64,000 bases of DNA from a virus (IMGVR_UViG_3300045972_000084:1-64000); one strand, 5' to 3'. Counted from the first letter of the stretch, positions 6,139 to 63,651 are shown. Notes: generated from the letters alone by a model not told the origin. Made by a program: numbers and translations.

Positions 6139-6167
6139 CTTTATCAAAACATTTCATAGGTAACCAC

Positions 6168-6530
6168 ATGGCAACGAAAAACCAATCGCAAATCAGCTCC
6201 ATTGATGACGAGCCGCTAGTGCAGGTATCTCCGGAAGTAATGGCTGCAAACGCAGGCATTGTTCCTGCTGAAAACATGGATGACGGGCTTTCCGGAAAGA
6301 TGGAAATGGTCACAGTCCACTCCTCTTCTGAAGAGAACGGTGGAGATGCAATCCTTCTGATTCACAACGGCTATGCACGCCAGATCCCTCGCGATACGCC
6401 AGTGAAGATCCCCACGGAAGTGGCCCAGGTTCTGCGTGATGCGAAGGTCACTCAGTACAAGCCAGGCCCAGGCGGCGCGGTCACAGAAGAGCAGCGTCCT
6501 CGCTACGCATTCTCTGCTGTTCCAGTCTAG
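6168..6530 (+). CDS. Hypothetical virion-module protein (120 aa)
   Basis: ORF in the late operon. No motif recognised. Confidence 0.55.
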   Translation: MATKNQSQISSIDDEPLVQVSPEVMAANAGIVPAENMDDGLSGKMEMVTVHSSSEENGGDAILLIHNGYARQIPRDTPVKIPTEVAQVLRDAKVTQYKPGPGGAVTEEQRPRYAFSAVPV

Positions 6531-7193: not shown

Positions 7194-7200
7194 GTAAAAC

Positions 7201-30790: not shown

Positions 30791-30797
30791 GAAAAAT

Positions 30798-39700: not shown

Positions 39701-42700
39701 CCTAGATCCAATCGACGGCACTGCGTACTTCATCGACCCTGACGGAGAGATCGCCTACTACGATGATCTTCCAGACCACATCCAGAAGATGGTGGATGAT
39801 ACTGGCGTAAGCGTGTCCGGTCCTGCGAAGTACGAGAACTACGTTCTTCCCGGCGGCGAGAACTACCGCGAAGTTCTTCTGACGTTGCCCGGAAGAAATG
39901 GATGGCTTGGCGAGAACGGGGAAACGGGCGAAGGAAAAATCTTTAACACACGCGACGAGGCGATTGCATTTGCTGGGCTGAACGGTGAAGTTAGCGAGTC
40001 TGAATCTAAGGATGGCTACCGCTCATCCCACTGGGACCAGAAGAATGTCCTAGCTCACATTCGTATGAACGACCGTACCGACTCCGAAGGTAAACGGGTT
40101 TTATTCGTGGAAGAGGTGCAATCTGACTGGGGTCAGGATGGAAAGAAGAAGGGGTTCAATGCTGAGCTAGACAAGACCCCTCTGACCCTAGAAGAAATTT
40201 CAGAGTTGAACGACTTGTACGGACTGCGCATCACAGGAAGAACACCAGAGCAGACTGCACGCATGCACGCGCTGAACGACCGCGATAACGCATCCAAAGG
40301 CAAGGGTACGATCCCGGCTGCCCCATTCGTAGGCAAGACCGACGCTTGGGTATCCCTAGCCCTGAAGCGAGTCATCAAGATGGCCGTGGATGGAGGCTAT
40401 GACAAGGTCGCGTTTGTGAATGGAGAGCAATCAGCAGATCGGTACTCTCTTGCAAAGAAGGTAAAGATCATTGACTACAGCGTGACTGGCGACCAGAACT
40501 ATCACGTTGAGGCATTCACGCATGACGGGGAGGTATTGCCGATCCCATACAGCCTTGATGCTGATGGTATCGAGCGTTATGTCGGCAAAGAAATTGCCCA
40601 GAAAATTGTCGATACCGCAACCAGAGAAAAGCAATCTGTAAAGGGCGATGACCTAAAGGTCGGTGGTGAAGGCATGAAAACTTTCTATGACCGCATCGTC
40701 CCATCCGTAGCCAAAGACGTGCTCAAGAAATTGGGTGGCGAGAAGCTGGAGACGGTATCAATGTCTCACGACCCAAATCAAGAGCTATCCAAGTGGGAGC
40801 CTGAAGATGGAGTAGGAGATGGAAGTAAAGCGGCCATTGACCAATACTCACAACCAGGTTTCACCATAACCCCGGAGATGCGTGATAAGGTTGGAAGTGG
40901 TATGCCGCTATTTAGTGAGCGAGATGAGAAGAATACAGATCTATTCCACAAGGATGTCAACACGCAGCGCATGTATCTACATAGCGTAGCCACAAAAGAA
41001 TATCTCCTGAATCGCCGAGTATCCAGTGCCGATACCGAGGTATCCGAGCGGTCTGGCTCACCCAATTCAGGAGACGTTGCTAGTGTAATCAATTCTCTAC
41101 TGAATGACAAGGGCGATGATGAAGTGAAAAAAAGCATGCGCTCCGGAACCTCAACCTGGGACATGTACGACGACTCCAAGTTTGATGACATCACCTACAA
41201 GCTGCAGAATAAGCAGATTGATACTAAGCGTGTCATTGAGTCCATTGAGAAGTATGTCGGAAAAGTAGACAACGATAAGAACGTCTACTTGCAAGAGGAG
41301 CTGTTCCATGGCCGCGCCGCCAAGGCAACCCACGACTTCGCCAAGCATGAGCTTGAGCCCTTGATGAAAGAGATTAAGGACGCGGGCTATGAACTGTCTG
41401 ATGTGGAGGAATACCTGCATGCGCGCCACGCCAAGGAGGCTAATGCGGTGATCGCCATGCGTGACCCCAGCATGCCTGATGGCGGGTCCGGAATGACCGA
41501 CGCCGCAGCCGATGCCTATATGAGAGCTCTGAGTCAAGAGGACCGAGCCAAGCTCTCTTCTATCTCCGCCAAGGTGGACGCCATTACCAACCAAACCAGG
41601 CAGATGTATGCCGACTATGGTCTGGAATCGCAGGCGACGGTAGACGGTTGGAAGTCCATGTTCAAGAACTACATCCCGCTTCAGCGCGAGGATAAGGAAG
41701 GCACCATGGGTATAGGCCAGGGCTTCTCCGTCAAGGGTAAAGAGGTCAAGGGCCGCACCGGCTCAACCCGCAAGGTGGTCGATATCCTGGCCAACATTGC
41801 CATGCAGCGCGAGCGCTTGATTGTTCGTGGGGAAAAGAACCGCGTCTCCAATGCGCTCCTGGGCCTAGCCATCGCCAACCCCAACCCGGAGTTCTGGAGC
41901 GTCGGCGCACCGCCGTCTGAGCGCGTCTATGACCCGGACACCAACTCCGTGGTACTTCGGCCTGACCCGATGTACAAGAGCCGTGACAACGTGATCGTGA
42001 CAAAGGCGAAGCAGCCCGACGGGACCATCAAAGAGGTAGCGGTCGTTTTCAATGAGGAAGATAAGCGCGCACTGCGCATGGCCAAGGCCTTAAAGAACCT
42101 GGATGCTGGAGATCTTGAAGGATTGCTGGGTGTAAGCGCCAAGATCACACGTTATTTCTCAGCGGTGAACACCCAGTACAACCCAGTGTTTGGTGTAGTG
42201 AATCTGGTGCGTGACGTGCAGCATGCCATGATCACGCTGGACCGAACGCCTCTGGCCAAGAAAAAAGGCAAGATCGCACGCGACACTGTGTCGGCCCTAT
42301 CCGGTATTTATCAGGACATGCGCGCAGAGCGTAATGGTCAGCCCGGGACATCCCAGTGGTCCCAGCTCTGGGAAGACTTCCAGCATGAAGGCGGGCAGAC
42401 TGGCTACCGGCAGATGTTCGCTACAAGCAAGGACCGCGCTGAAGAGCTGCAAAAGACGCTCAATCCAGATGCCTGGCTTGAAGGGAAGTACAGCAAGATC
42501 TTCACTGCCAATGGGGCTTTAAAGGTTCCATTGTCAAAAGCTAAGGAAGGTGCAAGCGTTATCTTTGATTGGCTGAGTGACTACAACGAGTCCATGGAAA
42601 ATGGAGTTCGACTTGCAACCTATAAGGCTGGCCTAGATCAGGGTATGAGCAAGCAGGAAGCTGCCAGCTTGGCCAAGAACTTGACGGTCAACTTCAACCG

Positions 42701-43826
42701 CAAGGGTCAAATTGGGCAGCAGGCAGGAGCGGTGTACGCATTCTTCAATGCAGCCGTTCAAGGCACGGCCAACATTGGACAGACACTGTTCACTATGGAA
42801 GGCGGGAATATAAAGAGTGCCCGCTTGAGCTCTACCGGAAAGAAAGTAGTTTATGGCGGGATGATGCTGGGTGCCATGCAGGCGCTGGCGCTGGCTGCCG
42901 CAGGATTCACAGACGATGATCCTCCACAGTTTGTGCGAGACCGTGGACTGGTTTTCCCAATTGGAGACAAGAAGTACATCTCAATTCCACTACCTCAAGG
43001 GTTCAATGTGATCCCGGGAATGGGCCGACAACTTACTGAGTTTGCGCTCAATGGGTTTAAGAACCCAGCCAAGAAGGCAATCGATTTGATTGGCCTGTTT
43101 GCGGATAACTTCAATCCGATTGGCAATGCCGGGATGTCTATGCAGACCCTGGCACCCACAGCGCTGGACCCATTGGTTGCACTGACTGAGAATAGGGACT
43201 TTACTGGAAAGCCGATTGCCCGGGTTAACAGCAATAAGGCTGTACCAGGATTCACCCAGTTCAAGGACAGCGCTACCGTGATTGGAAAGCTGATCGCTGA
43301 AGGAATCAATGGGGTAACCGGTGGCAATGCCTACGTTGCCGGTGCGCTCAGCCCAACTCCTGACCAGATTGACTACCTGCTAGGGCAGGTAACCGGTGGA
43401 GTCGGCCGCGAGCTGTCAAAGGTTGAGCAGACAGCCATCAGCACGGCGACTGGGGAGGATGTTCCATCCTTCAAGATGCCACTGGTAGGACGCTTTTATG
43501 GAGATGCCAAAGAACAGGCTGCCCAAGGAGGCCAGTTCTACTCCAACGTCAATCATCTCAATGAGATTGAGACTGAGGTCAAGGCAATGCGTAAGGATGG
43601 GAAATCTGCTGATGCGCAACAAGTGCTCCGGGATAACCCAGATGCCTACTTGATTGCTCAAGCAAATGTGGCAGAACGCCAGGTGCAGCGCCTCAACAAA
43701 GAGAAGCGAGACCTGGTTGCCAAGGGTGCTGACCGTGACCTTGTAAAAGCCAAAGAGCTTCAAATCACGGCAGTAATGACGCGGCTTAATAATGCCATGG
43801 AGAAAATCCATGAGACATCAAGGTAA
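30798..43826 (+). CDS. Giant multidomain virion/ejection protein (4,342 aa; polyvalent-protein type)
   Basis: Uninterrupted 13,029-nt ORF. ATG at 30798 lies 7 nt after the SLT stop. It contains a HEFGH zincin motif, an ART-like module, several conserved uncharacterised modules and hydrophobic segments. Confidence 0.85.
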   Translation: MSETQFSSLNKILADYNKSGDSPSISHPVNSMDGQVGLAQPTQSPMGFMDHVSDVGNSIVQGGKDLVRGGSDMVRSTVGGFADLGNKAGLVSDETKNSIDESNVKAIGENLKEAEAPDRYKPKGLSGEVALGLTHAAPAIAVSMIPGVGQVLGPAAFAIQGAGAGFDAIAQGDSLNNAQAKAIGQGALNTALGHVVSGSGNALLSKVPVVGRAFEQTAADTLPAVGARFAQGAGSMAAFKPAGAAIDAAADYATGEMKNPDGTDKTYDWKPGAADLLIGGFMAVPHSVSEYASRNKMPAQATLFSDGSTGVAHKNGTLFSSSSAAESFIQSNKLDGATVAPVTKGMFDKNSKDDKVLGYVVKPPIDITPSGGQTSEAIPPTDPVTQSLTDSANKGGPLSTAVLAADPIGQRASEVEVMLRSGDLLEKVRAIDPSGATPFLDAWRTAQNKSLPEQVRQTALNQVNQVMDLVKQRQAKDLAQQVGSQMPNLEQQGPGVEINNGLPSSITQAGHQWSEMSGSTPAEDMAAQKAQALQEQQAQETQPSSDAPIIQSGPRERQAKRDAELAGQRWQDKQPIGNPAYESSPYPAPSTEGVSTSGDLNGTKDGAQPVPGVSTPTGRAIDAGSVAPGDVGRDGLAANQERPPVSSVGELGKQSSGSSNSTVGEGHGNEATQAIQAETQGSPEPSRTAVEPEAQTVTPAGDGPADVRRRKAQLSSMISKGFSDAERRDDGSFWLINHRTNEEMKLDGPADFQRARTLTENAIKEKAAESPSSPRNEKNEPSKAQIDANNYEQPETEKLGFRVGVEQDVGSERKGIDEQGKSWRQVMRHIYGKIKGFGKGFDGDEPDAFVGHGRRIFVIDQTKPDGTFDEHKIMLGFKDEEDARQSYLSNYEKGWNRIGAITEMRPHELRQWLKNGGALKPAKPYDPVTNTGVKYAAVHGVDKSSSEGKTDGQDRAGDQGVDRTGGQPEDIGLRDSSIGSLAQSGSALRDSEKDAADVASTAQKQGREISLANPEHPATRAINALLDVMAGLTGHRGIAVSDTGRGASDGFYDPLTDRYHVNVDAPQMNVAKTIVHEFGHLAKKYPGIAALYSEMYRLIPENIKREYFEKYKFKGQSFDSANGKQLHLLEEEMINDFLGGRMHDKEWLADLANKKPNLFQNFIKEWIPLLDKLITELRGILGSERDSGLQQKDIDERMISGGHLDQLEQMKRIAMDVAEEWAKNRPAYAERAGINDILVKHSSREDLQKEMEDELNGRSVSDEDIKAKGRMAEDAYPDLEWKPDSSGFQETTMAPSEGKHQQRIEMNEDLRSDLWEGGMNNTWVGPSLDERDGYATKKGARDFFRRQVAAIDLRNRKFDLANTVEKSKLNELVSAWKTMEEIDGAHRYRGTLRSDMSLKDIAKSMGVTDKYDVSIMKAPSELGEHSISVTFVDKKTGASYGATLDRHTKDGQRFLTANTIELGKSGLGGAFYQMAAEFAARNGMKLHPEDSLSGINAYRRTEQQLSAALRTDKSNVMVPHKVQRVHGFEDDATRQEQHDANLGRLILAGVRNAKELIPSFEALRYSPEMGTFTDTKGVDREKAITQILNSPDSRAFGMGRSTLARAVMSNMILKGELSAKDVASFKEPVLYSARDEAAQQYRDVEDEYRGTEHWMKAPNGKPTKLNERQWVQARTPNFLKWFGDWTKGDIWGRDDVSKVVDENGEPLVVYHGTDKGGFYSFNEPGGKDRGDLGIFTTSNGSMAESYIRKGHAKDLTPLNDQQKLDDAGIEIYEYQGRESSKATKDETFYGYRSSWSGDESGYSSKEEAQSAAISLIEEGDDGSTKPGVYATFLNLRNPYETNFEGAMWSGERHDQFMVLDKDGEPIYTDDGRQFMDNAEAIDLADARGGQVTDADSHWETTDSAVRNGRNGHDGTIILNVVDDGGGVGYDMEPSDVFVANHADQLKSADFNTGEFGDTDDIRYSEKSNEREYKLDIKMEERSTLKTARLSEEEQSAIASAAKDLGLSDVAVAKVIESAKETKKRFPVSKGWAPAEVIGIYFKKDDDELPIPGTEEPKFKVIPYGFNIPPGEKRAPAKIDEKWMSQVTDKFHGLVEDLYKRSDAGDKNAQTIIAHQTWYRNVAEVLRREYGAQGDLLADLLGAISPNTPVDTNWRFSLDILRRFVRGEFKPLMENFVKYIEAGGAPSKYPAAEKIRQLSGKLYGMNSGNAMVAMANLWRNIESGQAPKARNFALNLIGQSNMATIDVWAARMLRRAANLVRGADLPRIPPSSEAGVSGVWNADATKVTGAFGFGAEVMRRVSERMQKDGRNVTPPDLQAIAWFAEKELWGTKGWTTKTGEGGSFEENISASPVERYLAGWSIQQGEKAPEPGDVSTAQARVMAMLIGDDSVVAARAQPTFGLYGGVIEHSFDTEWTVTKGQHDPSLVMAEIAKVSKENGQYDIFVSRVIHPDERSANARPGVEIYFKTKRDLEAAMPVLNEFTSRGQDGFTLATDMRSKPGEFIGVRLQYVPEISMRWDEGLRKELMAPGGIEKVLKEKFEALRDIARDVQLMNGVAYASTHLYDTVVIGKENYDEYIDRAAGGGHPKDGGQVWFGRPVREGLEGAVARYEGKRGQVDAGRVPDAGSELQSVKNSSRDEGHSGRDGAPDQRTIRSAIHYGQRPGLKVLSGSSHGTGLKGAEYDRLKNTTDPRLTKRVYFYAPVEGGIPQPEIGLGGSVYRADLEGIYDLRTANQPIRGAGNSFESALLDAGYKGYINPEQGTIVVLNQDVPVEHIGGIGDHKVIQRRNERTIPRVETRQEGAELVRQPQGQEAMDLVQNKAAIKDAAPSYRMEYGHARVLKSEAPKADAVLAKAGSTFQFGDIRHSSRDLGFYSELSKQVEKATMKQAPSGAWKSYIKALTQKGVKADEIEWTGVNDFLDLKDGKVSKDEILKFLDGNGVQINEVTLGSPKADVEKVSAKIGHLGYEAYLDPIDGTAYFIDPDGEIAYYDDLPDHIQKMVDDTGVSVSGPAKYENYVLPGGENYREVLLTLPGRNGWLGENGETGEGKIFNTRDEAIAFAGLNGEVSESESKDGYRSSHWDQKNVLAHIRMNDRTDSEGKRVLFVEEVQSDWGQDGKKKGFNAELDKTPLTLEEISELNDLYGLRITGRTPEQTARMHALNDRDNASKGKGTIPAAPFVGKTDAWVSLALKRVIKMAVDGGYDKVAFVNGEQSADRYSLAKKVKIIDYSVTGDQNYHVEAFTHDGEVLPIPYSLDADGIERYVGKEIAQKIVDTATREKQSVKGDDLKVGGEGMKTFYDRIVPSVAKDVLKKLGGEKLETVSMSHDPNQELSKWEPEDGVGDGSKAAIDQYSQPGFTITPEMRDKVGSGMPLFSERDEKNTDLFHKDVNTQRMYLHSVATKEYLLNRRVSSADTEVSERSGSPNSGDVASVINSLLNDKGDDEVKKSMRSGTSTWDMYDDSKFDDITYKLQNKQIDTKRVIESIEKYVGKVDNDKNVYLQEELFHGRAAKATHDFAKHELEPLMKEIKDAGYELSDVEEYLHARHAKEANAVIAMRDPSMPDGGSGMTDAAADAYMRALSQEDRAKLSSISAKVDAITNQTRQMYADYGLESQATVDGWKSMFKNYIPLQREDKEGTMGIGQGFSVKGKEVKGRTGSTRKVVDILANIAMQRERLIVRGEKNRVSNALLGLAIANPNPEFWSVGAPPSERVYDPDTNSVVLRPDPMYKSRDNVIVTKAKQPDGTIKEVAVVFNEEDKRALRMAKALKNLDAGDLEGLLGVSAKITRYFSAVNTQYNPVFGVVNLVRDVQHAMITLDRTPLAKKKGKIARDTVSALSGIYQDMRAERNGQPGTSQWSQLWEDFQHEGGQTGYRQMFATSKDRAEELQKTLNPDAWLEGKYSKIFTANGALKVPLSKAKEGASVIFDWLSDYNESMENGVRLATYKAGLDQGMSKQEAASLAKNLTVNFNRKGQIGQQAGAVYAFFNAAVQGTANIGQTLFTMEGGNIKSARLSSTGKKVVYGGMMLGAMQALALAAAGFTDDDPPQFVRDRGLVFPIGDKKYISIPLPQGFNVIPGMGRQLTEFALNGFKNPAKKAIDLIGLFADNFNPIGNAGMSMQTLAPTALDPLVALTENRDFTGKPIARVNSNKAVPGFTQFKDSATVIGKLIAEGINGVTGGNAYVAGALSPTPDQIDYLLGQVTGGVGRELSKVEQTAISTATGEDVPSFKMPLVGRFYGDAKEQAAQGGQFYSNVNHLNEIETEVKAMRKDGKSADAQQVLRDNPDAYLIAQANVAERQVQRLNKEKRDLVAKGADRDLVKAKELQITAVMTRLNNAMEKIHETSR

Positions 43827-54209: not shown

Positions 54210-54998
54210 TTATTGGGTTACTGTTGCGCGGACCATGGCCTTTTGCTCTTCGGTCATGTTTGCGCGGGATGCGACCGTGGCGATAACCTGGTCGGCCGTT
54301 TTCTTTCCTGACTCAATCAGTCCGCGCCACGTCGGCAGGTTCTTGGCGAACTGGTCGTCGGAGTAGGGTGGCAGTCCATTGCCTTGTTGCTGCTGCTGTT
54401 TGCGGTATTCAGGAGGAGGCTGATCGAAATCATTTCTTCCATATCCGTACCCATCGTCATCGGGCATATCCATGGTTGCTAATCCGCACGATTGCAGCAG
54501 CGTATAACGACTTAAATAAGTCTGGGCCGATGCAATTGCTTGGATTGAATTCTTCTTCCCGCTAACATCTGGCGGAGACATCATGGTTGTTGACTCGCTG
54601 TGCCCAAGGCGGTGCGTAATCTTGCAAGTTACAGAAATTACTCCGTTCTCTTGCTTTGTTTCCCAGCTATGACTAAACCCATACTCAGCAAGTGCATTGA
54701 CAACAGCTTTGGTTACATCTCCAAGGGTTGCATGCATGTACTCAGTACCAGAGAAAGAAACAAGCTTTGTCTTGAAGATTTCTGGCGGGTGCTTTTTGAA
54801 CTCCGCCATATCTGCAACATAGGCCTTGCGCGCCTCATTTGCCTCGTAATCTTTCTGTAAGTTCATAAGGCCTTGCATTTGCTCCACAGTCATGCCTGCC
54901 TGTAGTGCAATAATTGCATTTGCCATTGGCCCAGCCGACAGTTGGCCAGTAGGCTGAGACTGAATGGCACCTTGTTTTGATTCGACTATTGCGTTCAT
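54210..54998 (-). CDS. ERF-family single-strand annealing protein
   Basis: ATLGDV...L...GFSHSWET....G.ISVTCKITHRLGHSE ... NSIQAIASAQTYLSRYTL ... DDDG. GGAG-N6-ATG favours the start at 54998. Confidence 0.7.
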   Translation of the reverse strand: MNAIVESKQGAIQSQPTGQLSAGPMANAIIALQAGMTVEQMQGLMNLQKDYEANEARKAYVADMAEFKKHPPEIFKTKLVSFSGTEYMHATLGDVTKAVVNALAEYGFSHSWETKQENGVISVTCKITHRLGHSESTTMMSPPDVSGKKNSIQAIASAQTYLSRYTLLQSCGLATMDMPDDDGYGYGRNDFDQPPPEYRKQQQQQGNGLPPYSDDQFAKNLPTWRGLIESGKKTADQVIATVASRANMTEEQKAMVRATVTQ

Positions 54999-55525
54999 AC
55001 ATGACTCCATGATTTGCTTGATGCTGCTCGGCTTGCAGTCATTCGACTTACTGAGAATTCATTCGCCAGTGTTGTGATTGACGCACCTTCACTTCTGCGT
55101 TTACGAAGTGCTATCACGGCATCTGTATTGAGTTTTGAGAATGGATGGCGATCACCGCAGTTGCTTGTCCCGTGCATTCGCTTGTCAGCATGGTTTGCTT
55201 TAATCGTGTCCCATCGCAGGTTGGATGCTTTGTTGTTCTGCCTATCGCCATCGCAGTGGCATGCCTGCATTCCTTCTGGACACGGGCCAACAAATGCGCA
55301 GAGAACTATTTGATGTATGTATACGGTTGAAACAATGTCACCATTTGTCAACCGAATGCTTAGATACTTTGATTTGCCTGCACCTGGAGATAGAACTTTT
55401 TCGTAAATCTGGTACTGCTTTCCATCTGGTTGATGGACAACTCTCGGAAGCCTTTTAATACGACCAAGATCACTGATCATGTAAAGACCTTCATAGCCAA
55501 CTACATCAATCCATTGCTCGTTCAT
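54995..55525 (-). CDS. HNH homing endonuclease (NUMOD4-like N-terminus)
   Basis: WIDVVGYEGLYMISDLGRIKRL; CHCDGDRQNNKASNLRWDTIKANHADK. Confidence 0.8.
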   Translation of the reverse strand: MNEQWIDVVGYEGLYMISDLGRIKRLPRVVHQPDGKQYQIYEKVLSPGAGKSKYLSIRLTNGDIVSTVYIHQIVLCAFVGPCPEGMQACHCDGDRQNNKASNLRWDTIKANHADKRMHGTSNCGDRHPFSKLNTDAVIALRKRRSEGASITTLANEFSVSRMTASRAASSKSWSHV

Positions 55526-55547
55526 GTTTTCTCTCCTGTTAAATTAC

Positions 55548-55576
55548 ATTATGCCATACGGCAAACAAAAGAGCAA
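55548..55576 (-). promoter_or_regulatory. Early promoter TTGCTC-N17-CATAAT (paralogue of the 50,013 promoter)
   Basis: Spacer ttttgtttgccgtatgg is almost identical to that at 50,019-35. An 8-bp inverted repeat at 55566-95 overlaps the -35. Confidence 0.5.
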
Positions 55577-55606
55577 CAGATAGTTGACTCTTTTGTGTTG
55601 GTTATT

Positions 55607-55909
55607 TCAGACTGGTCTGATTAAGCCGAGCTCGAAAAGCTGGCCAATAGTGCTGCGGTGAGCTTCATCCCATCTCTCTATGCGCTCACTCTTGGAAAGG
55701 TTCTTTCCGCTATCAATTTCAACGTGGCATTTAGGGCATATTGCAGCTACCCGGTAGGGCTTCGCCTTCAACCCCATGCCCTTACCATCCTTGCTCTGGT
55801 TTGAGTGCGATACCTGAACACCATGTTTGCCGCACAGTTGACACGGCAGCTGGGCCACTGCGGCGAACAGTTTCTTCTGATCGCTAGGGTGCATGAGCTG
55901 ATACTTCAT
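55607..55909 (-). CDS. YbcO/DUF1364-like putative nuclease
   Basis: C..CG...V..SH.......GMGLKA......A.C..CH.EID pattern. It sits next to a YbcN-like gene, as in the DLP12 nin region. Confidence 0.5.
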   Translation of the reverse strand: MKYQLMHPSDQKKLFAAVAQLPCQLCGKHGVQVSHSNQSKDGKGMGLKAKPYRVAAICPKCHVEIDSGKNLSKSERIERWDEAHRSTIGQLFELGLIRPV

Positions 55910-56376
55910 GCGTACGCCAATATCTGATCGACAATGTTTCGCAACCGTGCCTCAGACATTTCCCCGTGGTAGATGTGCTTCAAAGCCGCGCTAATGAAGT
56001 CTGAGTAGACCTGTTCGCGCTCCTCGGGAGAGCACTTCGCGAATGAAAGTGACCTGGCTTTTGGCGTTGGCTTTCCATCCCAGTCAAACACGACATCAAA
56101 GTGCCCAGCAAGAATCGTGAAGTGCTGCCTCCATGTGTCAAAGCACGGCTTTACCAGTTGCCCCTGGTACTCAACCCCGGTGTCGACGCGATCCTTGAAT
56201 TGCTCATAGCAGAGATTCAACAAACTCATCATCTTGCGGTGGAATGCACCGTTCTGCATGAGCTTAAATTCTCCGCGCACCATGGAGCCAGACTTGAATC
56301 GTTTAAGTGACTCTGCCTGCTCATCATCAACCGGTATAAGCGAACCCGTTGGAGACTTTAGAAGGATTACTTCCAT
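55906..56376 (-). CDS. YbcN/DUF1367-like protein
   Basis: 156 aa. N-terminal L.P.DDE..E.LK..K.G...R.EF...NGAFHRKMMSLLNL. Confidence 0.45.
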   Translation of the reverse strand: MEVILLKSPTGSLIPVDDEQAESLKRFKSGSMVRGEFKLMQNGAFHRKMMSLLNLCYEQFKDRVDTGVEYQGQLVKPCFDTWRQHFTILAGHFDVVFDWDGKPTPKARSLSFAKCSPEEREQVYSDFISAALKHIYHGEMSEARLRNIVDQILAYA

Positions 56377-56585
56377 TGCGCCTCCAACCGGATTCCGCGT
56401 GACGTTCCTTTGATGATACGGATCTGACCCTTACGCTCCAGGATTTTCAAACCTTCCTCTGCAGAGTTTGGGCTCCTATATCCCAGGCCCTCGGCGATCT
56501 CTTGCCTGGTAGGTGGCACATCGTTTTTCGTGATGAAGTCCTTGATGAAGTGCATCATCTTGGTTTGAACTGCTGTCAAATGCAT
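56367..56585 (-). CDS. LexA N-terminal DNA-binding domain only (72 aa; no cleavage site, no S24 domain)
   Basis: PPTRQEIAEGLGYRSPNSAEEGLKILERKGQIRIIKGTSRGIRL versus E. coli LexA [44 protein letters not shown]. Confidence 0.8.
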   Translation of the reverse strand: MHLTAVQTKMMHFIKDFITKNDVPPTRQEIAEGLGYRSPNSAEEGLKILERKGQIRIIKGTSRGIRLEAQWK

Positions 56586-56587
56586 GC

Positions 56588-57583
56588 TTAGTCTCGCTCT
56601 TTGTAAAGGAGGTTGATGGTCTTAAACGAAAGTGTGTGGTCCAGTGAGCGGAACACTAGGCCCTCGCCGTGGCGGCCGTTGGGGTAGGTGATCTCAGCCA
56701 TCCGACGAAGCTGGTCCGCATCCAAGTAGCAGCCCGGCTCAATCGTGAACTGGGCATGCGCAATGGGTACGCCGGTTGCAATGCAGGCGTCAATCAGATC
56801 CTGGTCGCTGCGGCGGCAATGGTTCACAAAGTCGTACAGCGTGAAGGCGCGTCCCTCAACATCCGCCAGTCCCAATGGGTTACCTTGGATGCTTGGACCT
56901 ATCACCTCGAACTGCAGTGCACAGCCTTCAGGCAGTTTGCTTAGGTCGTACTTGCGTGCCGTCTTCCAGTAGGCATTCGTTCCACCAGTAGGGATGAACT
57001 CTTCGAGCTCCAGGTTTCTACTGGCCACACGAAGTGCACCCGTGGTAATGTCGTTCCACGCGGTGCAGCTTGATCCGTCGTACTTAATGCGCGCCACCAT
57101 GGCGAGGTTGGCGATCTTGTCTTCCAAGTCGTCAACGGTCTGAAAGTTGGGCTCATCGGTCTTTGGAATGAAGCTAGGGAAGTTTCCTTTGGCCACGCCT
57201 TGCATGGATGCCGGAATGGGCTTGGTGAACTTTGTCACCCCAAGCTTCTCGGAGAAGTCAGTCCCTATGGGCGCATCGAATTGAAGCTCATCAACTGGGT
57301 CGGTTGGGATGTTGATGATCACGCATTCCGAAGGTACGCCTTTAAAGCGGGCCATGCGAACACGCCACTTGTGCTTTTCCATGAATGCCCAGCGTGGGTC
57401 AGGCGGGAGCACGGCATCCTGCAGAAATACTAAAACCCTTGAAGCAGGTAGGACATCAAGCCCAACTACTCCAGACCACTTGCCTGCAGATCCGCACACC
57501 ACTGTTGCCTGACGAATAAAGTCAGCTCCTGGGATGTTGTGAATTGCTACTACCATTCCGATTACTACTAACGCCTGTGTCAT
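56588..57583 (-). CDS. ATP-dependent RNA ligase, DRB0094/Rnl5-like (N-terminal OB plus nucleotidyltransferase)
   Basis: KYDGSS motif I (KxDG). The N-terminal ...IHNIPGADFIRQATV.G...W.VV... is OB-like. Length is about 330 aa. Confidence 0.65.
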   Translation of the reverse strand: MTQALVVIGMVVAIHNIPGADFIRQATVVCGSAGKWSGVVGLDVLPASRVLVFLQDAVLPPDPRWAFMEKHKWRVRMARFKGVPSECVIINIPTDPVDELQFDAPIGTDFSEKLGVTKFTKPIPASMQGVAKGNFPSFIPKTDEPNFQTVDDLEDKIANLAMVARIKYDGSSCTAWNDITTGALRVASRNLELEEFIPTGGTNAYWKTARKYDLSKLPEGCALQFEVIGPSIQGNPLGLADVEGRAFTLYDFVNHCRRSDQDLIDACIATGVPIAHAQFTIEPGCYLDADQLRRMAEITYPNGRHGEGLVFRSLDHTLSFKTINLLYKERD

Positions 57584-58287: not shown

Positions 58288-59219
58288 GCTCGCATCCTTT
58301 GTTTCGCAAGGTGTTCAAGATTTGTAAGGGTGAGTGGAGGGGCTTGCCTCTGACTACGGACCCGGGCCTTGTAGGCCAGGAATTGCTCATCCAGCTCAAC
58401 CCATGGTCCAAAGCCATTGGCAATACCCTCAGCCTCGATAGAGGCTCTGGAGTCAGGGTCTGCAGTTGCCGCGCTTTCTGGCGGAGGTGCGACCCCAAAC
58501 GATCCACGGACCCGGAGCTTGGCCCAGTCCTCACGGACAGCCTCCATGAACGCCGAGTCCCAGTCGACGTACTGGTAGCCCTTGGCCTTGGCCTTGGCTT
58601 TGAACGCCTCCAGGTGTTGGTTGAGCTGGCCAAAGCCCTTCTCCCTGGACCAGTCCACAACCCGTTGGCTAATGCCAAAGTCGACTGGGATGTCTGACTT
58701 CGGTGGCTTCCTCTTTGGCTTATCCACAGTGGGCGTAGGCAACGCAGTTGCCGATGGCGCGGAAGCGCTGCACTCAGGAAGGGGGAAGGGGGAAGAGGGA
58801 TTCAGGAAGAGGGATTCAGCCGGAGCGGTTCCGTTTTTATCCAGAACTTTCTCGATATTCTCTAACTTGTTGATTTCATTAGAGTTTTCTGGAGGTGCTG
58901 GGATTTCACTTCCGGAGTCTCGCTCGTTCTTGTGAGGGTTCTGGTGCTTGTCAAAATTGAGGATGCTGATGTACCGTTGACCTGATACGGAATAGATCAA
59001 GATAAATCCAGAGTCCTCCAGATTTTTCGCGAGGACTTCGATATCGCAGTTGTCGTACGGCAGAAGTTGAACTTTGATTCGTTTTGGGCGGAACTCAAAG
59101 CAACCCTTGAAGTCGGCAATAGTCCACATGCCAATGAATAGGAGCCTGGCTATTGGCTCAAGCTCACCAAGCTTATCGTTGGAGAAAAAGCTGGGCTTTA
59201 TATTCCTCGCTCTTGCCAT
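58284..59219 (-). CDS. Putative replication initiation/organiser protein (311 aa)
   Basis: It is the second gene of the leftward operon, after the Cro-like gene. The N-terminal IKPSFFSNDKLGEL.P.ARLLFIGMWTIADF.G pattern is seen in phage replication proteins (recollection). Confidence 0.4.
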   Translation of the reverse strand: MARARNIKPSFFSNDKLGELEPIARLLFIGMWTIADFKGCFEFRPKRIKVQLLPYDNCDIEVLAKNLEDSGFILIYSVSGQRYISILNFDKHQNPHKNERDSGSEIPAPPENSNEINKLENIEKVLDKNGTAPAESLFLNPSSPFPLPECSASAPSATALPTPTVDKPKRKPPKSDIPVDFGISQRVVDWSREKGFGQLNQHLEAFKAKAKAKGYQYVDWDSAFMEAVREDWAKLRVRGSFGVAPPPESAATADPDSRASIEAEGIANGFGPWVELDEQFLAYKARVRSQRQAPPLTLTNLEHLAKQRMRA

Positions 59220-59310
59220 TTATTTTGTCCTACTGGTTAAAATTACAGGTTGCATATCTATACTTGTTTGCTAGACTGCAAATCTAATGTTGAGAAATTT
59301 GTTAAATCCG

Positions 59311-59523
59311 CTACCTAGTTGTCAAGCTGAGTCGCCAGCGAAGAAGTTCTTCGTGCGTGAACTTTCCACTGGAAAGCTCAACGATCACGGGAATCCATTT
59401 CGCTGGGAGAGCGCGTCTTTCGTGCTTCACATTGCTGACATTTGTCGCATTGATGCCCAGCTTTTTTCTCAACTGGGTGGCCTGCCCAGGATTCTTATCC
59501 AGCCATTTTCGGAATTTCTGCAT
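59311..59523 (-). CDS. Cro-like HTH regulator (70 aa), leaderless
   Basis: Divergent from cI. QATQLRKKLGINATNVSNVKH is an HTH. The ATG lies 6 nt after the -10 box. Confidence 0.65.
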   Translation of the reverse strand: MQKFRKWLDKNPGQATQLRKKLGINATNVSNVKHERRALPAKWIPVIVELSSGKFTHEELLRWRLSLTTR

Positions 59524-59525
59524 GC

Positions 59526-59538
59526 CAGCATTATGCTG
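59526..59538. promoter_or_regulatory. Operator candidate: perfect palindrome CAGCAT-T-ATGCTG overlapping the Cro -10 box
   Basis: Seen directly in the sequence. Centred on the CATAAT. Confidence 0.55.
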
Positions 59539-59558
59539 AACAGCAAACGAATGGTCAA
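59530..59558 (-). promoter_or_regulatory. PR-like promoter TTGACC-N17-CATAAT
   Basis: Minus strand: TTGACC attcgtttgctgttcag CATAAT gctggc ATG. Confidence 0.65.
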
Positions 59559-59591
59559 GAGTCCTGCAAATTATTACAAAAGGAGGTAAAT

Positions 59592-60281
59592 ATGGCTGAA
59601 AAAGATGAGCTAACACCAATTCGCAGATCAAACCTGGCTCTATGGATGGAGGAGGGTGGGGTCACCAGGACATCCTTGGCTGATCGCCTTGGTGTTGGCC
59701 GTGCCTATACGTCACTTCTATTTAATGAGACGCGCTACTTTGGATCAAAGGCGGCAAGGTCTATTGAGAAGAAGCTTTACATGCCTACTGGATTCTTGGA
59801 TGCAGCACCAGGGACTGTGCCTTTGTCTGTATCTGAGTGGTCTACACCCGCAGATTTGCCATCGAATGTTTTTGCACTGGTGCCAAGGATTGCCGTCCAG
59901 GTTGCGGCCGGAAGCGGCGCGATTGTGGATGTCGAAGAGCATCTTCCTCCCCTTGCTTTTAGAAAGCATTGGCTTGATAAGAAACAGATTACGAGCAGGG
60001 ATAACCTGCGCATCGTGACCGTGAAGGGAGACTCGATGAGCCCCTACCTCATGGATCACGATGTTGCAATGATTGACACCGGCCAAGTCGACCAGATCCA
60101 AGACAATCACATTTATGCGATAGAGCACTCAGGCGATGTTCGGATTAAGAGACTGTCAAAAAGATTCGATGGGGGTGTGTTGATCAGGTCTGATGCACCG
60201 GGCTACCCGGAAGAATCACTCTCAGCCAAGGACGCTAAGTCGCTTCGCGTTATTGGGAAGCTGGTATGGCGTGCTGGATAG
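59592..60281 (+). CDS. cI: CI-type repressor (HTH plus S24 LexA-like autopeptidase)
   Basis: N-terminal HTH (TRTSLADRLGVGRAYTSLLFN), an Ala-Gly site (QVAAGSGA), GDSMSP (Ser) and IKRL (Lys). AAGGAGG RBS. Confidence 0.9.
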   Translation: MAEKDELTPIRRSNLALWMEEGGVTRTSLADRLGVGRAYTSLLFNETRYFGSKAARSIEKKLYMPTGFLDAAPGTVPLSVSEWSTPADLPSNVFALVPRIAVQVAAGSGAIVDVEEHLPPLAFRKHWLDKKQITSRDNLRIVTVKGDSMSPYLMDHDVAMIDTGQVDQIQDNHIYAIEHSGDVRIKRLSKRFDGGVLIRSDAPGYPEESLSAKDAKSLRVIGKLVWRAG

Positions 60282-60453
60282 GATAGATCAAGGCTTCGAG
60301 ATGGCGCATGACCCGCAGTGGCGCACCTTTTGATTCGTACCGTGTGTATGTTCGGAGTGATACCCCGAGCTTTTGCGCCATAGCTTCTTGAGAGAGTCGG
60401 AAGTCGCAGCAACGTGCAAGACGGAGTTGCTGGATGCTTTGTTCATTTGTCAT
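60250..60453 (-). CDS. XRE-family HTH protein (67 aa)
   Basis: LSQEAMAQKLGVSLRTYTRYESK. The 3' end overlaps the cI 3' end by 32 nt. Confidence 0.6.
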   Translation of the reverse strand: MTNEQSIQQLRLARCCDFRLSQEAMAQKLGVSLRTYTRYESKGAPLRVMRHLEALIYPIQHAIPASQ

Positions 60454-60715
60454 GATGTCGATTCCTTTCGGTGAGAGTCGCATGCAGGTAGCATTTCCAC
60501 AGCGTCTCGATGTGTGATCCTGGGTATTTGTATCCAGGCTTTGGCGTGACGAGCACGCGAGGTTGGTAGCCCATGGTCTGAAGAAAGACATGGAACGATT
60601 CGCGGATAGGGAGGTCTCGCTCCAGTGTTGTAGTCTCGATGCGAACCCGCTCCTCAAAGTCTTCCTTGCGTAGGATGGCTTCTCGGATCTTGTCTTCTTC
60701 AGATGGGTGTGTCAT
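60443..60715 (-). CDS. Hypothetical protein (90 aa)
   Basis: ATGA-coupled to the deacetylase gene. It overlaps the HTH gene start by 11 nt. Confidence 0.5.
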   Translation of the reverse strand: MTHPSEEDKIREAILRKEDFEERVRIETTTLERDLPIRESFHVFLQTMGYQPRVLVTPKPGYKYPGSHIETLWKCYLHATLTERNRHHDK

Positions 60716-61608
60716 GTTGTTTCCAGTAGGTGTTGCCGATGCTGAATGCTACCCCTGGCAGCGCGCAAAGTGTTGAGGTGCACCCTGAGTACCGGATCGG
60801 TCTCAATCGTGCCTCCTGGGTTAGCCTGGTAGCCTCCGGCGATGCAAAATGAAGTTGGTGCATTGATGTTGTCAAAGACCATCTTGTCGCGTTGCGATAA
60901 CTGCTTGTCGTCTAGGAATCCTCCAAGCGGGTCATTAATGTGAGGATCGGCACCCAGCTGCGCAATTACAACGTCTGGTCGAAATGCATTTATTTCGTCA
61001 ATCGATTCCTTTAGCCAGGCTTGAAACTCAAGTGCCTCCTGCCTTGGGTTGTCACCGTAAAAGTATTTGCCTTGTGTTAAATGCAAGACACTGTTTGACA
61101 GCTCCGGCTTGTGCTGCAATATATTTTCAGTTCCATTGCCTTCATGCATGTCGAGATCGAGAATTGCACACTTGAAGTCAGGGTTTTCTTGCAGCAATTT
61201 TGCAGCCACAACCATCAGCCCATTGAATGTACAAAAGCCACCGGAGCCGATGCTGTAGCCGCTATGGTGGAAGCCGCTTGTGGGGCTTAGGACTGGAGTT
61301 GTCGGGCTCTCTATTGCGCACCTTGTTGCTCCAAGTAGGCTACCAATGGTCCATAAACAAGACTCCGGAATGCGTGGGTCGCAATTCTCAAATCCGTTCG
61401 GGTCCATGAGTGCAAAGATACGATCCACATGATCTTTGCGATGCACAAGGTACAAGTCTTCTTTTGTTACTGGTGTTACTTGGCGCACGTCTGAAAATCC
61501 GTGGCGAGACGCGAGCCAAACCAATCGCTCTGGCTTTGATGCACTTGGTGAGTAACTATCTATCCCGGAAACCGACTGACGTTTGTCGTAAAAAATTGGT
61601 ATGTTCAT
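60712..61608 (-). CDS. HDAC/acetoin-utilisation/acetylpolyamine-amidohydrolase superfamily Zn-deacetylase (298 aa)
   Basis: SGFHHSGY, ILDLDMHEGNGTE, GADPHINDPLGG and IAGGY: the full catalytic signature. The start at 61608 avoids overlap with the upstream gene. Confidence 0.8.
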   Translation of the reverse strand: MNIPIFYDKRQSVSGIDSYSPSASKPERLVWLASRHGFSDVRQVTPVTKEDLYLVHRKDHVDRIFALMDPNGFENCDPRIPESCLWTIGSLLGATRCAIESPTTPVLSPTSGFHHSGYSIGSGGFCTFNGLMVVAAKLLQENPDFKCAILDLDMHEGNGTENILQHKPELSNSVLHLTQGKYFYGDNPRQEALEFQAWLKESIDEINAFRPDVVIAQLGADPHINDPLGGFLDDKQLSQRDKMVFDNINAPTSFCIAGGYQANPGGTIETDPVLRVHLNTLRAARGSIQHRQHLLETT

Positions 61609-61609
61609 T

Positions 61610-62242
61610 TCATGCTGCCTTTTTGAAAATTCCATTTGATGCAATCTCTATATCTTTATAGAAGACGTTCCTTTTGCTGATGTATTGATAATCCAGCCCA
61701 GCTAAGTCACATGCATCGCCAAGCGAAATTACTTCGTTTTTGTAAAAGACCATAGTGGTCGTTGATCTGTTTCTTGCTTGTGATTTGCTTGTAGCCCATC
61801 GACAATTTTCAGGCCCATAAGGCTTGCTGTTGTCTATCCTGTCCAAGCTAAATTGAAGACCAGGTCTATTTCCCATGTCTGCAAGAAATATCAAGTAGTT
61901 TCTCCATTCCAATGGAGGAGTTCGATCCTTGTATTCGTTGTATCTTGGGTAGTTCTTATTGGTGCATCTATTCCACATTGATTTCCATGAGCTGTATGTT
62001 ATGGAGTCAACATCGCCATGTTTTAGAAAGGTTGAAGATGTAATTTTTTTATGCAAGCATCCGCAGCTTTTAGTGTGACCACTTAATAAAGAATACTGCC
62101 GTACTGATGTCAACTCACCGCAATCACAAACGCATTCCCATATTGGAACTCTGCTCTTGTTTTTTCCTTTGTATTCTGTGACGATAAGATTTCCAAATCT
62201 AGTTCCAATCAACTCCATCTTTGCATCAATTGCTTTTGGCAT
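61610..62242 (-). CDS. Phage Zn-finger / degenerate HNH(AP2)-like DNA-binding protein (210 aa)
   Basis: GTRFGNLIV...WECVCDCG....L.SGHTKSCGC; YSSWKSMWNRC; SLDRIDNSKPYGPENCRWAT. Confidence 0.55.
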   Translation of the reverse strand: MPKAIDAKMELIGTRFGNLIVTEYKGKNKSRVPIWECVCDCGELTSVRQYSLLSGHTKSCGCLHKKITSSTFLKHGDVDSITYSSWKSMWNRCTNKNYPRYNEYKDRTPPLEWRNYLIFLADMGNRPGLQFSLDRIDNSKPYGPENCRWATSKSQARNRSTTTMVFYKNEVISLGDACDLAGLDYQYISKRNVFYKDIEIASNGIFKKAA

Positions 62243-62409
62243 TAGATTTCTCCTTCGTAAAGAAGATCCTCGGCCGTCTCATCGATATGCTCAGCGATGT
62301 TGAGTGCAGTAGCCAGCAGCATGTTGTCAGGCTGCTGGCGCATTAGGCGTTTGAGGATTACTTGAATGTGGTGTGCATCCACCACGATGTTTGAGAGTTG
62401 TTCACTCAT
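62242..62409 (-). CDS. 55-aa ORF (not in track)
   Basis: AAGGAG-N6-ATG at 62409. TAATG coupling to the next gene. Confidence 0.45.
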   Translation of the reverse strand: MSEQLSNIVVDAHHIQVILKRLMRQQPDNMLLATALNIAEHIDETAEDLLYEGEI

Positions 62410-62547
62410 GTCATGCTCCTTATCGAGACTTCAATCCACCATCTGTTTTGAATCAGAGTGGTGGGCAGGATGTTCAAAACCAGAGATAAGTCTGGCGGCT
62501 GACGTTACCGCTCAACCCATCCTGCCCGTAATCGAAATTAAGGACAT

Positions 62548-62576
62548 GACAAAACCGCACTGACGGGGCGGTTTCT
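62548..62576 (-). terminator. Rho-independent terminator
   Basis: AAACCGC / GCGGTTT stem with UUUUGU on the minus strand. Confidence 0.65.
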
Positions 62577-62650
62577 CCGCTTATCTCAAGGTGTTTTGAA
62601 GCACCATCCATTTCTGGACAGCTCGAATATACGCCTGCAAAATTCTTGTG

Positions 62651-62845
62651 TCAAGATTTCCCCTGTATGTATTTTGTGAGCCGACCAATGCGGTCGGTGT
62701 TGTATGCGCAGATCGCTATCGAATAGTCTTTTGCAGACTGTGCGTCCAAAAGACTGCGCCTGGCTTCTTCGAGCTCTCGAATTGCCATCTCTTCTGGAGA
62801 GGGTTTGCGAAATGGGCTGAGGAACTGCTGCAGAAATTCTTTCAT
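62651..62845 (-). CDS. Hypothetical small protein (64 aa)
   Basis: Coupled ORF followed by a terminator. Confidence 0.5.
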   Translation of the reverse strand: MKEFLQQFLSPFRKPSPEEMAIRELEEARRSLLDAQSAKDYSIAICAYNTDRIGRLTKYIQGKS

Positions 62846-63075
62846 TTACCTTCCTTTATGATTGCGTCGTAGATCTCACGGCCAAGCTGTTCGAGACCCC
62901 ACTGGGTGCAGGTTGTAGAGAGCAGTGTGCGCAGCTCTTGCGGGTTCTTCGCAGAGTCCAGACGGGACTCGATCTTCAGCAGGAACTCGCCGTGGGTAGC
63001 ATCCACTTTCTTTACTGTGGCGAGCACCTCGTACCCACCTGTCTTGATGATGGTCTGTGTCATCCGATCCTCCAT
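62842..63075 (-). CDS. Hypothetical small protein (77 aa)
   Basis: Coupled ORF. Confidence 0.5.
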   Translation of the reverse strand: MEDRMTQTIIKTGGYEVLATVKKVDATHGEFLLKIESRLDSAKNPQELRTLLSTTCTQWGLEQLGREIYDAIIKEGK

Positions 63076-63151
63076 TTAAAAATATCAAGCGCAAAAATAA
63101 CAACGGCCACAAGATATGCGGCCGCGAGAATGAGGTTTAGTTTTCGGTGGT

Positions 63152-63343
63152 TCAAAGCGTAGCCCTTTGTGCCAGGGCATCACTTATTTCACCGTTGCGA
63201 TGCAGGTATTCGACAAAGCTGCAGAAAGCTACGCGTACATCTGTGCTGTATTGATTTTGCTTCCATGCTCCATGCTTCAGATAGCTGTTACGGCTCCAGA
63301 ACTGGTTGCGAATTTCTTTCTGAGTGATGATGCTGTAGTTCAT
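63152..63343 (-). CDS. Hypothetical small protein (63 aa)
   Basis: ORF. Confidence 0.45.
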   Translation of the reverse strand: MNYSIITQKEIRNQFWSRNSYLKHGAWKQNQYSTDVRVAFCSFVEYLHRNGEISDALAQRATL

Positions 63344-63420
63344 GATGCTTTCCCTGTTGCTTTAAGAATTGCTGCGCGGGCAACAATCAGTGGACCATCT
63401 GCTCCCTCGGGGGTTGGAAG

Positions 63421-63651
63421 CTAGCCCATAGTCAGCTCGGCAATTTCGACCATCTGCTTAAGAGCATCAAGTAGATCTGGAGTTGCAGCTATCAACTTTG
63501 CATTTGCAATGGATAGCTCATCGTCCCCAGAAAGTTCAATCCCAGTCAGTGCAACTACACTGAATGGAGAAGAAGTAACTCCGTAATGGACTCGGCTGTC
63601 GTCTTTAACAAGAACACGACCAAACGCCCATGGTCCAGGTGAATGTTTCAT
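63421..63651 (-). CDS. Hypothetical protein (76 aa) with GPW ... ANAKLIAATPDLL motif
   Basis: The internal ATG gives ATGA coupling. The motif is common in small phage proteins. Confidence 0.5.
   Translation of the reverse strand: MKHSPGPWAFGRVLVKDDSRVHYGVTSSPFSVVALTGIELSGDDELSIANAKLIAATPDLLDALKQMVEIAELTMG

Follow-up and report, generated by a model that had tools for sequence, protein, structure and literature searches.

Several described systems each share some features with a locus beside the cI-type repressor gene of the viral genome fragment IMGVR_UViG_3300045972_000084. This fragment was analysed as a stretch of 64,000 nt (positions 1-64000), referred to here as the window; all coordinates refer to this phage sequence, loci are labelled L### and proteins P####. 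The closest systems are the class IV HDAC11 and cluster 5 enzymes, Zn-dependent members of the histone deacetylase (HDAC) family PF00850 of about 300 aa, whose catalytic residues and G-F/Y-H-H and xGGY motifs are also found in an enzyme of the window. In bacteriophage lambda, the accessory genes rexA-rexB likewise lie immediately beside a temperate repressor gene; they are read from the same strand as cI, beyond its 3' end, and belong to its transcription unit. Toxin-first toxin-antitoxin (TA) systems, such as HigBA and MqsRA, share with the locus the succession of an enzyme, a binding domain and an XRE helix-turn-helix (HTH) regulator. Free-standing HNH endonucleases (PHROG 374 and 3377) resemble another part of it in their sporadic occurrence, their insertion exactly between two genes, a diverged flank in the adjacent gene and a foreign GC content. 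Giant viruses also encode Zn enzymes of the same superfamily, the acetylpolyamine amidohydrolases (APAHs), whose deacetylase activity has been demonstrated (PMC9992855). In this work, we describe an HDAC-family deacylase gene that is located, together with three small partner genes (up77, orf90 and a gene for an XRE-family HTH protein), next to cI in the window and in related phages. In the window, a separate segment carrying an HNH-family gene and a 55-aa open reading frame (ORF), orf55, is inserted into this module. Our explanation, put forward tentatively as a whole, is that the locus is a composite of a conserved, early-acting deacylase module and an independent mobile cassette.

The deacylase is counted as a protein of 298 aa, although its frame is also open from an ATG that would give 307 aa and from a TTG that would give 310 aa; in the homologue alignment, the family N-terminus 'M..PIFYD' agrees with the 298-aa start. 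The protein matches PF00850 above the gathering score (99.7 bits against a cut-off of 27.9, E 2.5e-28). The first-pass annotation, made from the sequence of the window, had held that the enzyme keeps every catalytic element, and this stands: H114-H115 of the FHH motif, D151, D153 and H155, D221, and Y260 of the GGY motif are invariant in 34 homologues and align with their counterparts in HDAC11 homologues. They comprise the tandem catalytic histidines, the Asp-His-Asp set of zinc ligands and the catalytic tyrosine. Because every catalytic residue is present, the protein is probably an active class IV-like Zn deacylase. With a family profile, the best near-full-length single-domain matches in the PDB were VcHdaH of Vibrio cholerae (9GKV, 3e-27; a further entry for this enzyme is 9GKY), a cluster 5b lysine de-decanoylase, followed by HDAC11 of Leptospira interrogans (9GZ5/9RJD, 1e-26) and HDAC11 of Chlamydomonas (9RJE, 3e-26). 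Identity to these class IV and cluster 5 structures is about 25-30%.

The motifs around the active site also bear on the type of substrate. According to PMC11532494, robust deacetylases carry RPP-GHH where VcHdaH has SGGYHH and HDAC11 has GGGFHH, and this change accompanies an extended foot pocket that accommodates longer acyl chains. The window deacylase has PTSGFHH in place of RPP-GHH, and AGGY as its glycine-rich motif, so that both the G-(F/Y)-H-H and the xGGY signatures of the foot-pocket enzymes are found. From these motifs, the deacylase more likely resembles the class IV and cluster 5 foot-pocket enzymes than the polyamine deacetylases. This comparison bears directly on the suggestion that the protein is a metabolic enzyme that deacetylates a small molecule, for example an acetylpolyamine, thereby supplying phage replication or packaging. 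Such a role would have precedents in the active Zn-dependent APAHs of giant viruses (PMC9992855) and in HDAC11 clade A, for which PMC13325672 reports no peptide activity and proposes non-peptide substrates, and homologues of the deacylase do occur in many lytic-looking viral contigs. However, APAH chains align only to deacylase residues ~105-176 (one chain to 233), with E values of 1e-10 to 1e-11 for the single sequence and 6e-17 to 4e-15 with a profile; the similarity is limited to the central ~60 residues, whereas the full-length matches are class IV and cluster 5 enzymes. Full-length similarity to APAHs, including the specificity and dimerisation loop, was not found, as the deacylase has 298 aa against ~341-353 aa and is thus about 45 residues shorter, and HDAH structures also match it only partially. 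The APAHs of eukaryotic giant viruses belong to another subfamily and are unconnected with any repressor locus, and the PNAS survey lists viral APAHs from giant viruses (Imitervirales) and none from phages (PMC9992855). A metabolic role would also leave the fixed position next to cI and the fusions with orf90 and the HTH described below unexplained, and we consider it improbable.

Relatives of the deacylase are encoded by 202 IMG/VR contigs, of which the six closest (L001-L006) show 54-59% identity. In these six, in L170, in L174 and in the NCBI metagenome contig L166, small early genes are followed by the deacylase gene, orf90, in some cases the HTH gene, a convergent cI gene and cro. The conserved core consists of up77, the deacylase gene, orf90 and the XRE HTH gene, with the last abutting cI convergently. 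A census anchored on cI gave the same picture: a scan with the single cI protein found nothing, and an alignment-based cI search was used instead, in which all eight IMG/VR contigs with a cI of at least 44% identity and enough flanking sequence carried a deacylase gene beside cI. The first-pass annotation had asked whether the homologues are linked to phages or to cI; they are strongly linked to both, and the alternative that they are housekeeping genes with no phage association does not hold, as the family is strongly tied to mobile elements. L066 encodes a cI that is 49% identical to that of the window and, at the same site, a deacylase of about 37% identity that falls outside the window subclade in a neighbour-joining tree. 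Because so divergent a deacylase occupies this site, selection for such an enzyme beside cI is suggested. Between the window and L170, dN/dS is 0.04 for up64 (the gene downstream of up77), 0.07 for orf90, 0.095 for up77, 0.10 for the HTH gene and 0.14 for the deacylase gene, and it lies within 0.04-0.14 across these genes and cI; given these values, all six are real genes under constraint.

The 90-aa protein encoded by orf90 appears to be a previously undescribed small helical domain. Its conserved core reads IRxxFHxWLxxxGF..TPxPGxxYPGSHxQxLWECxLxATLxER. Neither orf90 nor orf55 has a family match in Pfam, PHROGs, NCBIfam or PADLOC, and orf90 has no match in GenBank phages. A word-index search returned only orf90 itself, a profile search gave 11 matches, and an exhaustive search found 44 representatives among 1.84e9 protein clusters, which makes this a very small family. 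An AlphaFold2 model built from nine sequences predicts a three-helix protein with confidence (pLDDT 89.9); this model has no significant Foldseek match in the PDB or BFVD. The gene lies directly downstream of the deacylase gene in 15 loci, a number that includes the window (L081) and a fusion protein, P0085, in L166. Two different proteins, P0085 and P0091, carry orf90 as a C-terminal extension of the deacylase, and the gene for P0085 occupies the same cI-adjacent position. In L174, the orf90 core and an XRE HTH form one polypeptide (5949-6308, minus strand). Because fusions thus occur in both directions, we regard a functional link between deacylase, orf90 and HTH as somewhat probable, and fusions and gene order together suggest that orf90 could be an adaptor-like domain serving enzyme and regulator alike.

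Additionally, members of the orf90 family appear promiscuous in their fusions within the repressor-adjacent region. In L001, orf90 is fused to DUF551 (6906-7277, plus strand), and P0145 has a C-terminal extension similar to this DUF551 fusion. Another locus encodes P0167, an otherwise unrelated protein that ends in an orf90 domain; an HTH gene and a convergent cI come after it.

The other two small partners differ in their distribution. The up77 gene lies upstream of the deacylase gene in nine loci found with jackhmmer, two of which, L083 and L084, are on Curvibacter chromosomes and have no phage genes nearby, and also in L200; L083, L084 and L200 carry the trio of up77, deacylase and orf90 outside phages. 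For up77, no match was found in Pfam, in the PDB or with Foldseek, a profile finds nothing in the PDB, and its single-sequence model has a pLDDT of 72.6. The 67-aa HTH protein matches HTH_3 (E 1e-5). Homologues of it were found exclusively next to cI in phage loci, where the 3' ends of the two genes mostly overlap: the convergent overlap of the HTH gene and cI measures 32 nt in the window, 38 nt in L162 and L166, and 62 nt in L170. The neighbour-joining tree of 169 deacylase sequences places the window enzyme in a clade of 17 members, comprising ten cI-adjacent phage copies, L082, L083, L084, L167, two copies in L168, and L169. L082 is a short beta-proteobacterial contig whose context is not readable. 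In L167, the deacylase gene lies on an island with Mob_Pre and integrase genes, and in L169 on an integrase-bounded island of Rhodoferax sediminis. In L168 (Comamonadaceae chromosome OZ239423.1, 7001-9502), two paralogues flank a DUF3293 gene on a P4-like island with AlpA and Toprim/DUF3987 primase genes. Unlike the class IV and cluster 5 enzymes in general, this subclade is located in phages or integrative islands wherever the flanks are readable, with L082 excepted, and it has dedicated small partners (orf90 and up77), none of which are noted for those enzymes in the consulted parts of the sources. Text searches of the 2024 bacterial-deacylase survey and the 2026 class IV study likewise returned no mention of phages.

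The constant position of the module against cI raises the question of whether it takes part in the genetic switch itself. The XRE HTH and orf90 might bring the deacylase to DNA-bound proteins, or transcription running into the 3' end of cI might tune the repressor. The invariance of the position within the lineage, the recurrent convergent overlap of the HTH gene with cI, the fusions joining orf90 to deacylase and to HTH, and the divergent enzyme at the same site in L066 would all be compatible with such a mechanism. Nevertheless, up77, deacylase and orf90 genes also occur in chromosomal loci without the HTH gene or cI, there is no evidence of acylation of cI or nucleoid proteins in these hosts, and a single orf90-HTH fusion is known. 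We therefore regard a role in the switch as quite improbable. A more specific version is very improbable: the XRE HTH, orf90 and deacylase would form a DNA-targeted deacylase complex acting on cI, Cro or nucleoid-associated proteins and would be, by analogy, a phage counterpart of the eukaryotic recruitment of HDACs by repressors and corepressors. A candidate cI operator, TTTGCAGG, was present in both promoter regions; it was not enriched (4 found, 3.75 expected) and was dropped.

The five minus-strand ORFs that the first-pass annotation listed between orf55 and the HTH gene were all found at the sizes given there, and the junctions were also as described: TAATG at 62242, TGA-A-ATG with a 1-nt gap at 61609, ATGA at 60712-60715 and an 11-nt overlap at 60443-60453. 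These tight junctions might suggest that all five ORFs form one co-evolved cassette with the HNH-like protein as its DNA-binding component. A comparison with L170, a 4.4-kb contig that is the closest relative found (flanks of 82-89% nucleotide identity), does not bear this out, as orf55 and the HNH gene sit in a separate insertion of 1,042 nt that has no counterpart there. The gene order of L170 is up77-like, up64-like, deacylase, a 90-aa ORF, HTH and convergent cI, and its up64 stop overlaps the deacylase start. In blastn alignments, homology stops at 62651, exactly at the up64 stop; a weak match of 229 nt (~66%) follows at 61399-61171, within the deacylase gene, and strong homology (82%) sets in again at 60954. 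The GC content of the insertion is 0.39-0.42, that of its flanks 0.47-0.53. L170, L001 and L004 lack both orf55 and the HNH gene, and their up64 homologue either adjoins the start of the deacylase gene or overlaps it; the other related loci likewise yielded neither of the two genes at this position. With the foreign composition of the insertion and the dispersed, mobile nature of the HNH family, a single five-gene cassette is barely credible.

The 210-aa protein of the insertion matches PHROG 374 'HNH endonuclease' (E 6e-54) and PHROG 3377 (E 3e-31). Its family is present in 850 GenBank phage records from many hosts, and relatives are located elsewhere in some of the related phages, so the gene is sporadic: the same site is empty in close relatives while family members occupy other sites. 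Since the insertion is low in GC, absent from L170 and placed at a gene junction, it is interpreted as a mobile HNH cassette, and the diverged 5' two-thirds of the deacylase gene fit such an event. We hold with high confidence that the insertion carries the signature of a free-standing homing-endonuclease cassette of HNH-like type and that the locus is composite. The case differs from other PHROG 374 and 3377 members in that the protein has no Pfam HNH match (and no match in the PDB), that it is accompanied by orf55 and a structured leader, and that cleavage and homing are putative here. The N-terminus of the protein is Cys-rich and CapR-like (CapR E 0.009). No close relative of the cassette was found in IMG/VR, and no homologue of orf55 was found.

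The insertion also brings a sigma-70-like promoter site, recognised by consensus match only, and a structured leader whose fold has a z-score of -5.7 against shuffled sequences. Within the leader, the segment 62456-62526 resembles sRNA-Xcc1 (RF02221) below threshold (33.4 bits against a gathering score of 53); no Rfam match reached its gathering score, and the sRNA-Xcc1-like match is absent beside HNH homologues in five other loci. A terminator had been proposed on the minus strand at 62548-62576, in front of the five ORFs. A hairpin does exist there, as part of the structured leader; it was not called by the terminator scan and its U-run pairs into the stem. This hairpin is located downstream, and not upstream, of the promoter-like site. 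Judging from these sequence features, the inserted promoter and leader may have uncoupled expression of the module in the window phage from the upstream operon.

In the window, the module is the distal end of a long minus-strand run. This run begins with small ea-type genes, at least 20 in number and including NinX and P22_Y8K6, which are followed by up63, a hairpin, up77, up64, the insertion, and the deacylase, orf90 and HTH genes; it ends inside the 3' end of cI and continues with cro, replication genes, and the genes for an RNA ligase and ERF. Within it, cI alone points the opposite way. In L170, L001, L004 and L174, the deacylase gene is coupled to the preceding gene and there is no intergenic promoter space. 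The terminator-like hairpin between up63 and up77, the strongest in the region and noted at the same site for L081 (the window), would, if functional, have to be overcome, by read-through or antitermination, by transcripts of the early operon upstream. A placement like that of rexAB had been proposed for the module, and here the analogy fails, because the module is convergent with cI and is not co-transcribed with it: it lies on the opposite strand, is continuous with an early-type operon, and overlaps cI at the 3' ends instead of following it on the same strand as lambda rexAB does. It also has no homology to rexA-rexB. Transcription through the module would run antisense into cI.

The coupling of the deacylase gene to up64 in relatives, the convergence with cI and the presence of homologues in lytic-looking phages point to early expression. 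On these grounds, we give roughly even odds to the module acting in early lytic growth or induction and not as a defence expressed in the lysogen. Viral homologues of about 40% identity lie near tail sheath and tube genes or near ribonucleotide reductase (RNR) genes, and also on very large contigs, and for these a lysogeny-specific role is unlikely. Homologues next to polyvalent-protein genes in L008, L035 and L120 also count in favour of early or lytic use. The positions of the features of the locus, and of other genes mentioned below, are collected in Table 1.

Table 1. Features of the repressor-proximal locus and other genes of the window referred to in the text.
Feature	Position	Strand	Description
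up63		-	upstream gene; precedes up77 in the minus-strand run
Terminator-like hairpin	63103-63125	-	9-bp stem and T-run, between up63 and up77
up77	62842-63075	-	77 aa; no known fold family; recurs upstream of deacylase
up64	62651-62845	-	64-aa early-operon gene
Insertion	61609-62650	-	1,042 nt; no counterpart in L170
Sigma-70-like promoter	62654-62626	-	TTGACA-17-TATATT; 11/12, consensus match only; -35 overlaps up64 stop
Structured leader	62405-62622	-	218 nt
orf55	62242-62409	-	55 aa; AAGGAG Shine-Dalgarno; within insertion
HNH-family gene	61610-62242	-	210 aa; homing-endonuclease-like, free-standing; PHROG match
Deacylase	60712-61608	-	298 aa from ATG; HDAC-family, Zn-dependent, class IV / cluster-5-like
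orf90	60443-60715	-	90 aa; predicted three-helix protein
XRE-family HTH gene	60250-60453	-	67 aa; HTH_3 match
cI-type repressor (S24 autopeptidase)	59592-60281	+	convergent with module
Promoter-like site of Cro-like gene	59558-59530	-	TTGACC-17-CATAAT; divergent from cI
Cro-like HTH gene	59311-59523	-	divergent from cI
Early region	54210-57583	-	includes the three genes below
RNA ligase	56588-57583	-	
Second HNH endonuclease	54995-55525	-	NUMOD4 and HNH_3
ERF recombinase	54210-55010	-	
Polyvalent protein	30717-43826	+	4,369 aa
Portal	229-2574	+	

The main competing explanation is a defence system of a prophage or island, of the abortive infection (Abi) or TA-like type, in which the deacylase would be the effector and orf90 and the XRE HTH its neutralising, autoregulatory partner in a toxin-first arrangement like that of HigA or MqsA, expressed in the lysogen so as to exclude other phages. 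The order of enzyme, small binding domain and XRE HTH, together with the single, antitoxin-like orf90-HTH protein of L174, would suit such a system, and the HTH matches antitoxin-type Xre and MqsA models, weakly and below threshold. A TA-like layout had been seen earlier in the pair of the 90-aa protein and the HTH. This reading proved weak, as orf90 is fused variously to deacylase, DUF551 and HTH, and the deacylase also occurs alone. Since the enzyme is present without orf90 and the HTH in L168, L169, L053 and L063, it is not an obligately neutralised toxin, and chromosomal loci lack the HTH gene. An obligate, self-contained and autoregulated pair, as in type II TA systems, was thus not found; in contrast to HigBA and MqsRA, the enzyme family also occurs without partners and the module of the relatives has no promoter of its own, being coupled to the early operon. 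To our knowledge, there is no toxin family of the HDAC fold. The view that the enzymes have no described defence role stands: PADLOC-DB v2 gave no match to the deacylase, orf90, orf55 or the HNH protein and only weak, generic HTH matches to the HTH protein, and no defence or counter-defence role of a Zn-dependent deacylase was found in the literature searched. In addition, the tail-sheath and RNR contexts of homologues look lytic, and every phage of the cI lineage keeps the module, unlike sporadic defence cargo. Taken together, a defence system of this kind is unlikely.

Several observations nevertheless weigh against an early-acting module and are to be set beside this assessment. Among the subclade members outside phages, L083 adjoins a type III restriction-modification (R-M) system, an ABC-3C CTD6/Mrr gene is found at a distance of 1.5 kb from L084, and the L168 deacylase genes stand beside genes for a reverse transcriptase (RT), DUF4917, PRTase-CE and HsdM; such defence-type neighbours fit a defence role equally well. 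An HTH_11/PafC-like regulator of ~240 aa is encoded within ~120 nt of 15 of the 80 bacterial homologues (loci including L087, L088, L093, L094, L097, L101, L110, L112, L115, L119 and L130), which also speaks for the defence explanation. The timing is read from gene order, and in the window the strong promoter-like site (11/12) upstream could keep the module expressed constitutively, in lysogens as well. With regard to the partners, an orf90 domain occurs without an upstream deacylase in L163 and L201, and orf90 is for this reason not an exclusive partner of the enzyme; the fusions could perhaps be tolerated accidents of overlapping genes, the orf90-HTH fusion having been seen once. As to the enzyme, its substrate is not readable from the deacylase sequence, and PMC11532494 and PMC13325672 report only weak peptide activity for cluster 5 enzymes and none for HDAC11 clade A.

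The wider neighbourhoods of the homologues offer some further observations. The surroundings of the 80 bacterial homologues are heterogeneous and share no single conserved partner; DUF3293, ADP-ribosylglycohydrolase and a HIT-PLD-helicase protein recur a few times. The HTH_11/PafC-like regulator and the adjacent deacylase homologue suggest a regulated two-gene chromosomal unit. The context of L168 looks like a defence hotspot. A DUF3293 gene follows the deacylase gene in the five other loci of the same neighbour cluster (Pfam-confirmed in L087), and no paper on DUF3293 was found in the literature searched. In L008, L035 and L120, which are unrelated loci, deacylase homologues adjoin polyvalent-like genes (InPase/LPD37 regions). 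The window itself encodes a 4,369-aa polyvalent protein with LPD38, InPase, LPD37, ART-PolyVal and DUF7178 domains, presumably injected with the DNA; text searches of polyvalent-protein and jumbo-phage surveys found no mention of HDAC.

The remaining features concern the phage as a whole. The repressor matches Peptidase_S24 and the PHROG 4 repressor family. The early region contains, on the minus strand, a second HNH endonuclease gene, ERF recombinase and RNA ligase genes, and a gene for a LexA_DNA_bind protein. The portal protein is 29-33% identical to those of HMO-2011-, CRP-1- and phiM6-type podophages and of Pseudomonas phage Rollin, and no DNA nearly identical to 59000-63500 was found in GenBank phages; given this low portal identity and the lack of a DNA match, the phage has no close cultured relative. 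No close relatives were found on plasmids. The phages are temperate podophages, probably of Burkholderiales; the nearest bacterial deacylase homologues point to Comamonadaceae-like hosts.

According to the explanation that we tentatively prefer, the module of up77, deacylase, orf90 and XRE HTH would stand last in a long early-type operon reading toward cI. The enzyme would remove an acyl group, possibly one longer than acetyl, from lysines of host or phage proteins or from a small-molecule amide, while orf90 would bind the deacylase and link it to the XRE regulator. Such a module would most likely act during early lytic development or induction, and its role would be host takeover or counter-defence and not exclusion co-expressed with cI. 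In the window phage, the HNH-like gene and orf55 would have been inserted between up64 and the deacylase gene together with a promoter and structured leader.

No role of Zn-dependent HDAC-family enzymes in phage biology was found in the literature searched. The enzyme belongs to a known superfamily, in its likeness to class IV and cluster 5, and the HNH cassette is ordinary; what is new is a deacylase subclade that is confined to phages and integrative islands wherever its flanks are readable and is fixed beside cI in one phage lineage, the orf90 domain, which fusions connect with the enzyme as well as with an XRE regulator, and the up77 partner. The locus also offers a clean example of a homing-endonuclease cassette that splits an operon and supplies a promoter, as judged by its consensus match. 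Should the deacylase remove an acyl mark installed by the host, a new class would be added to the counter-defence enzymes; should it regulate DNA-bound proteins, lysogeny control would have a new input, and were the improbable DNA-targeted complex to exist, acylation and deacylation, and with them the metabolic state of the host, would feed into the decision between lysis and lysogeny.

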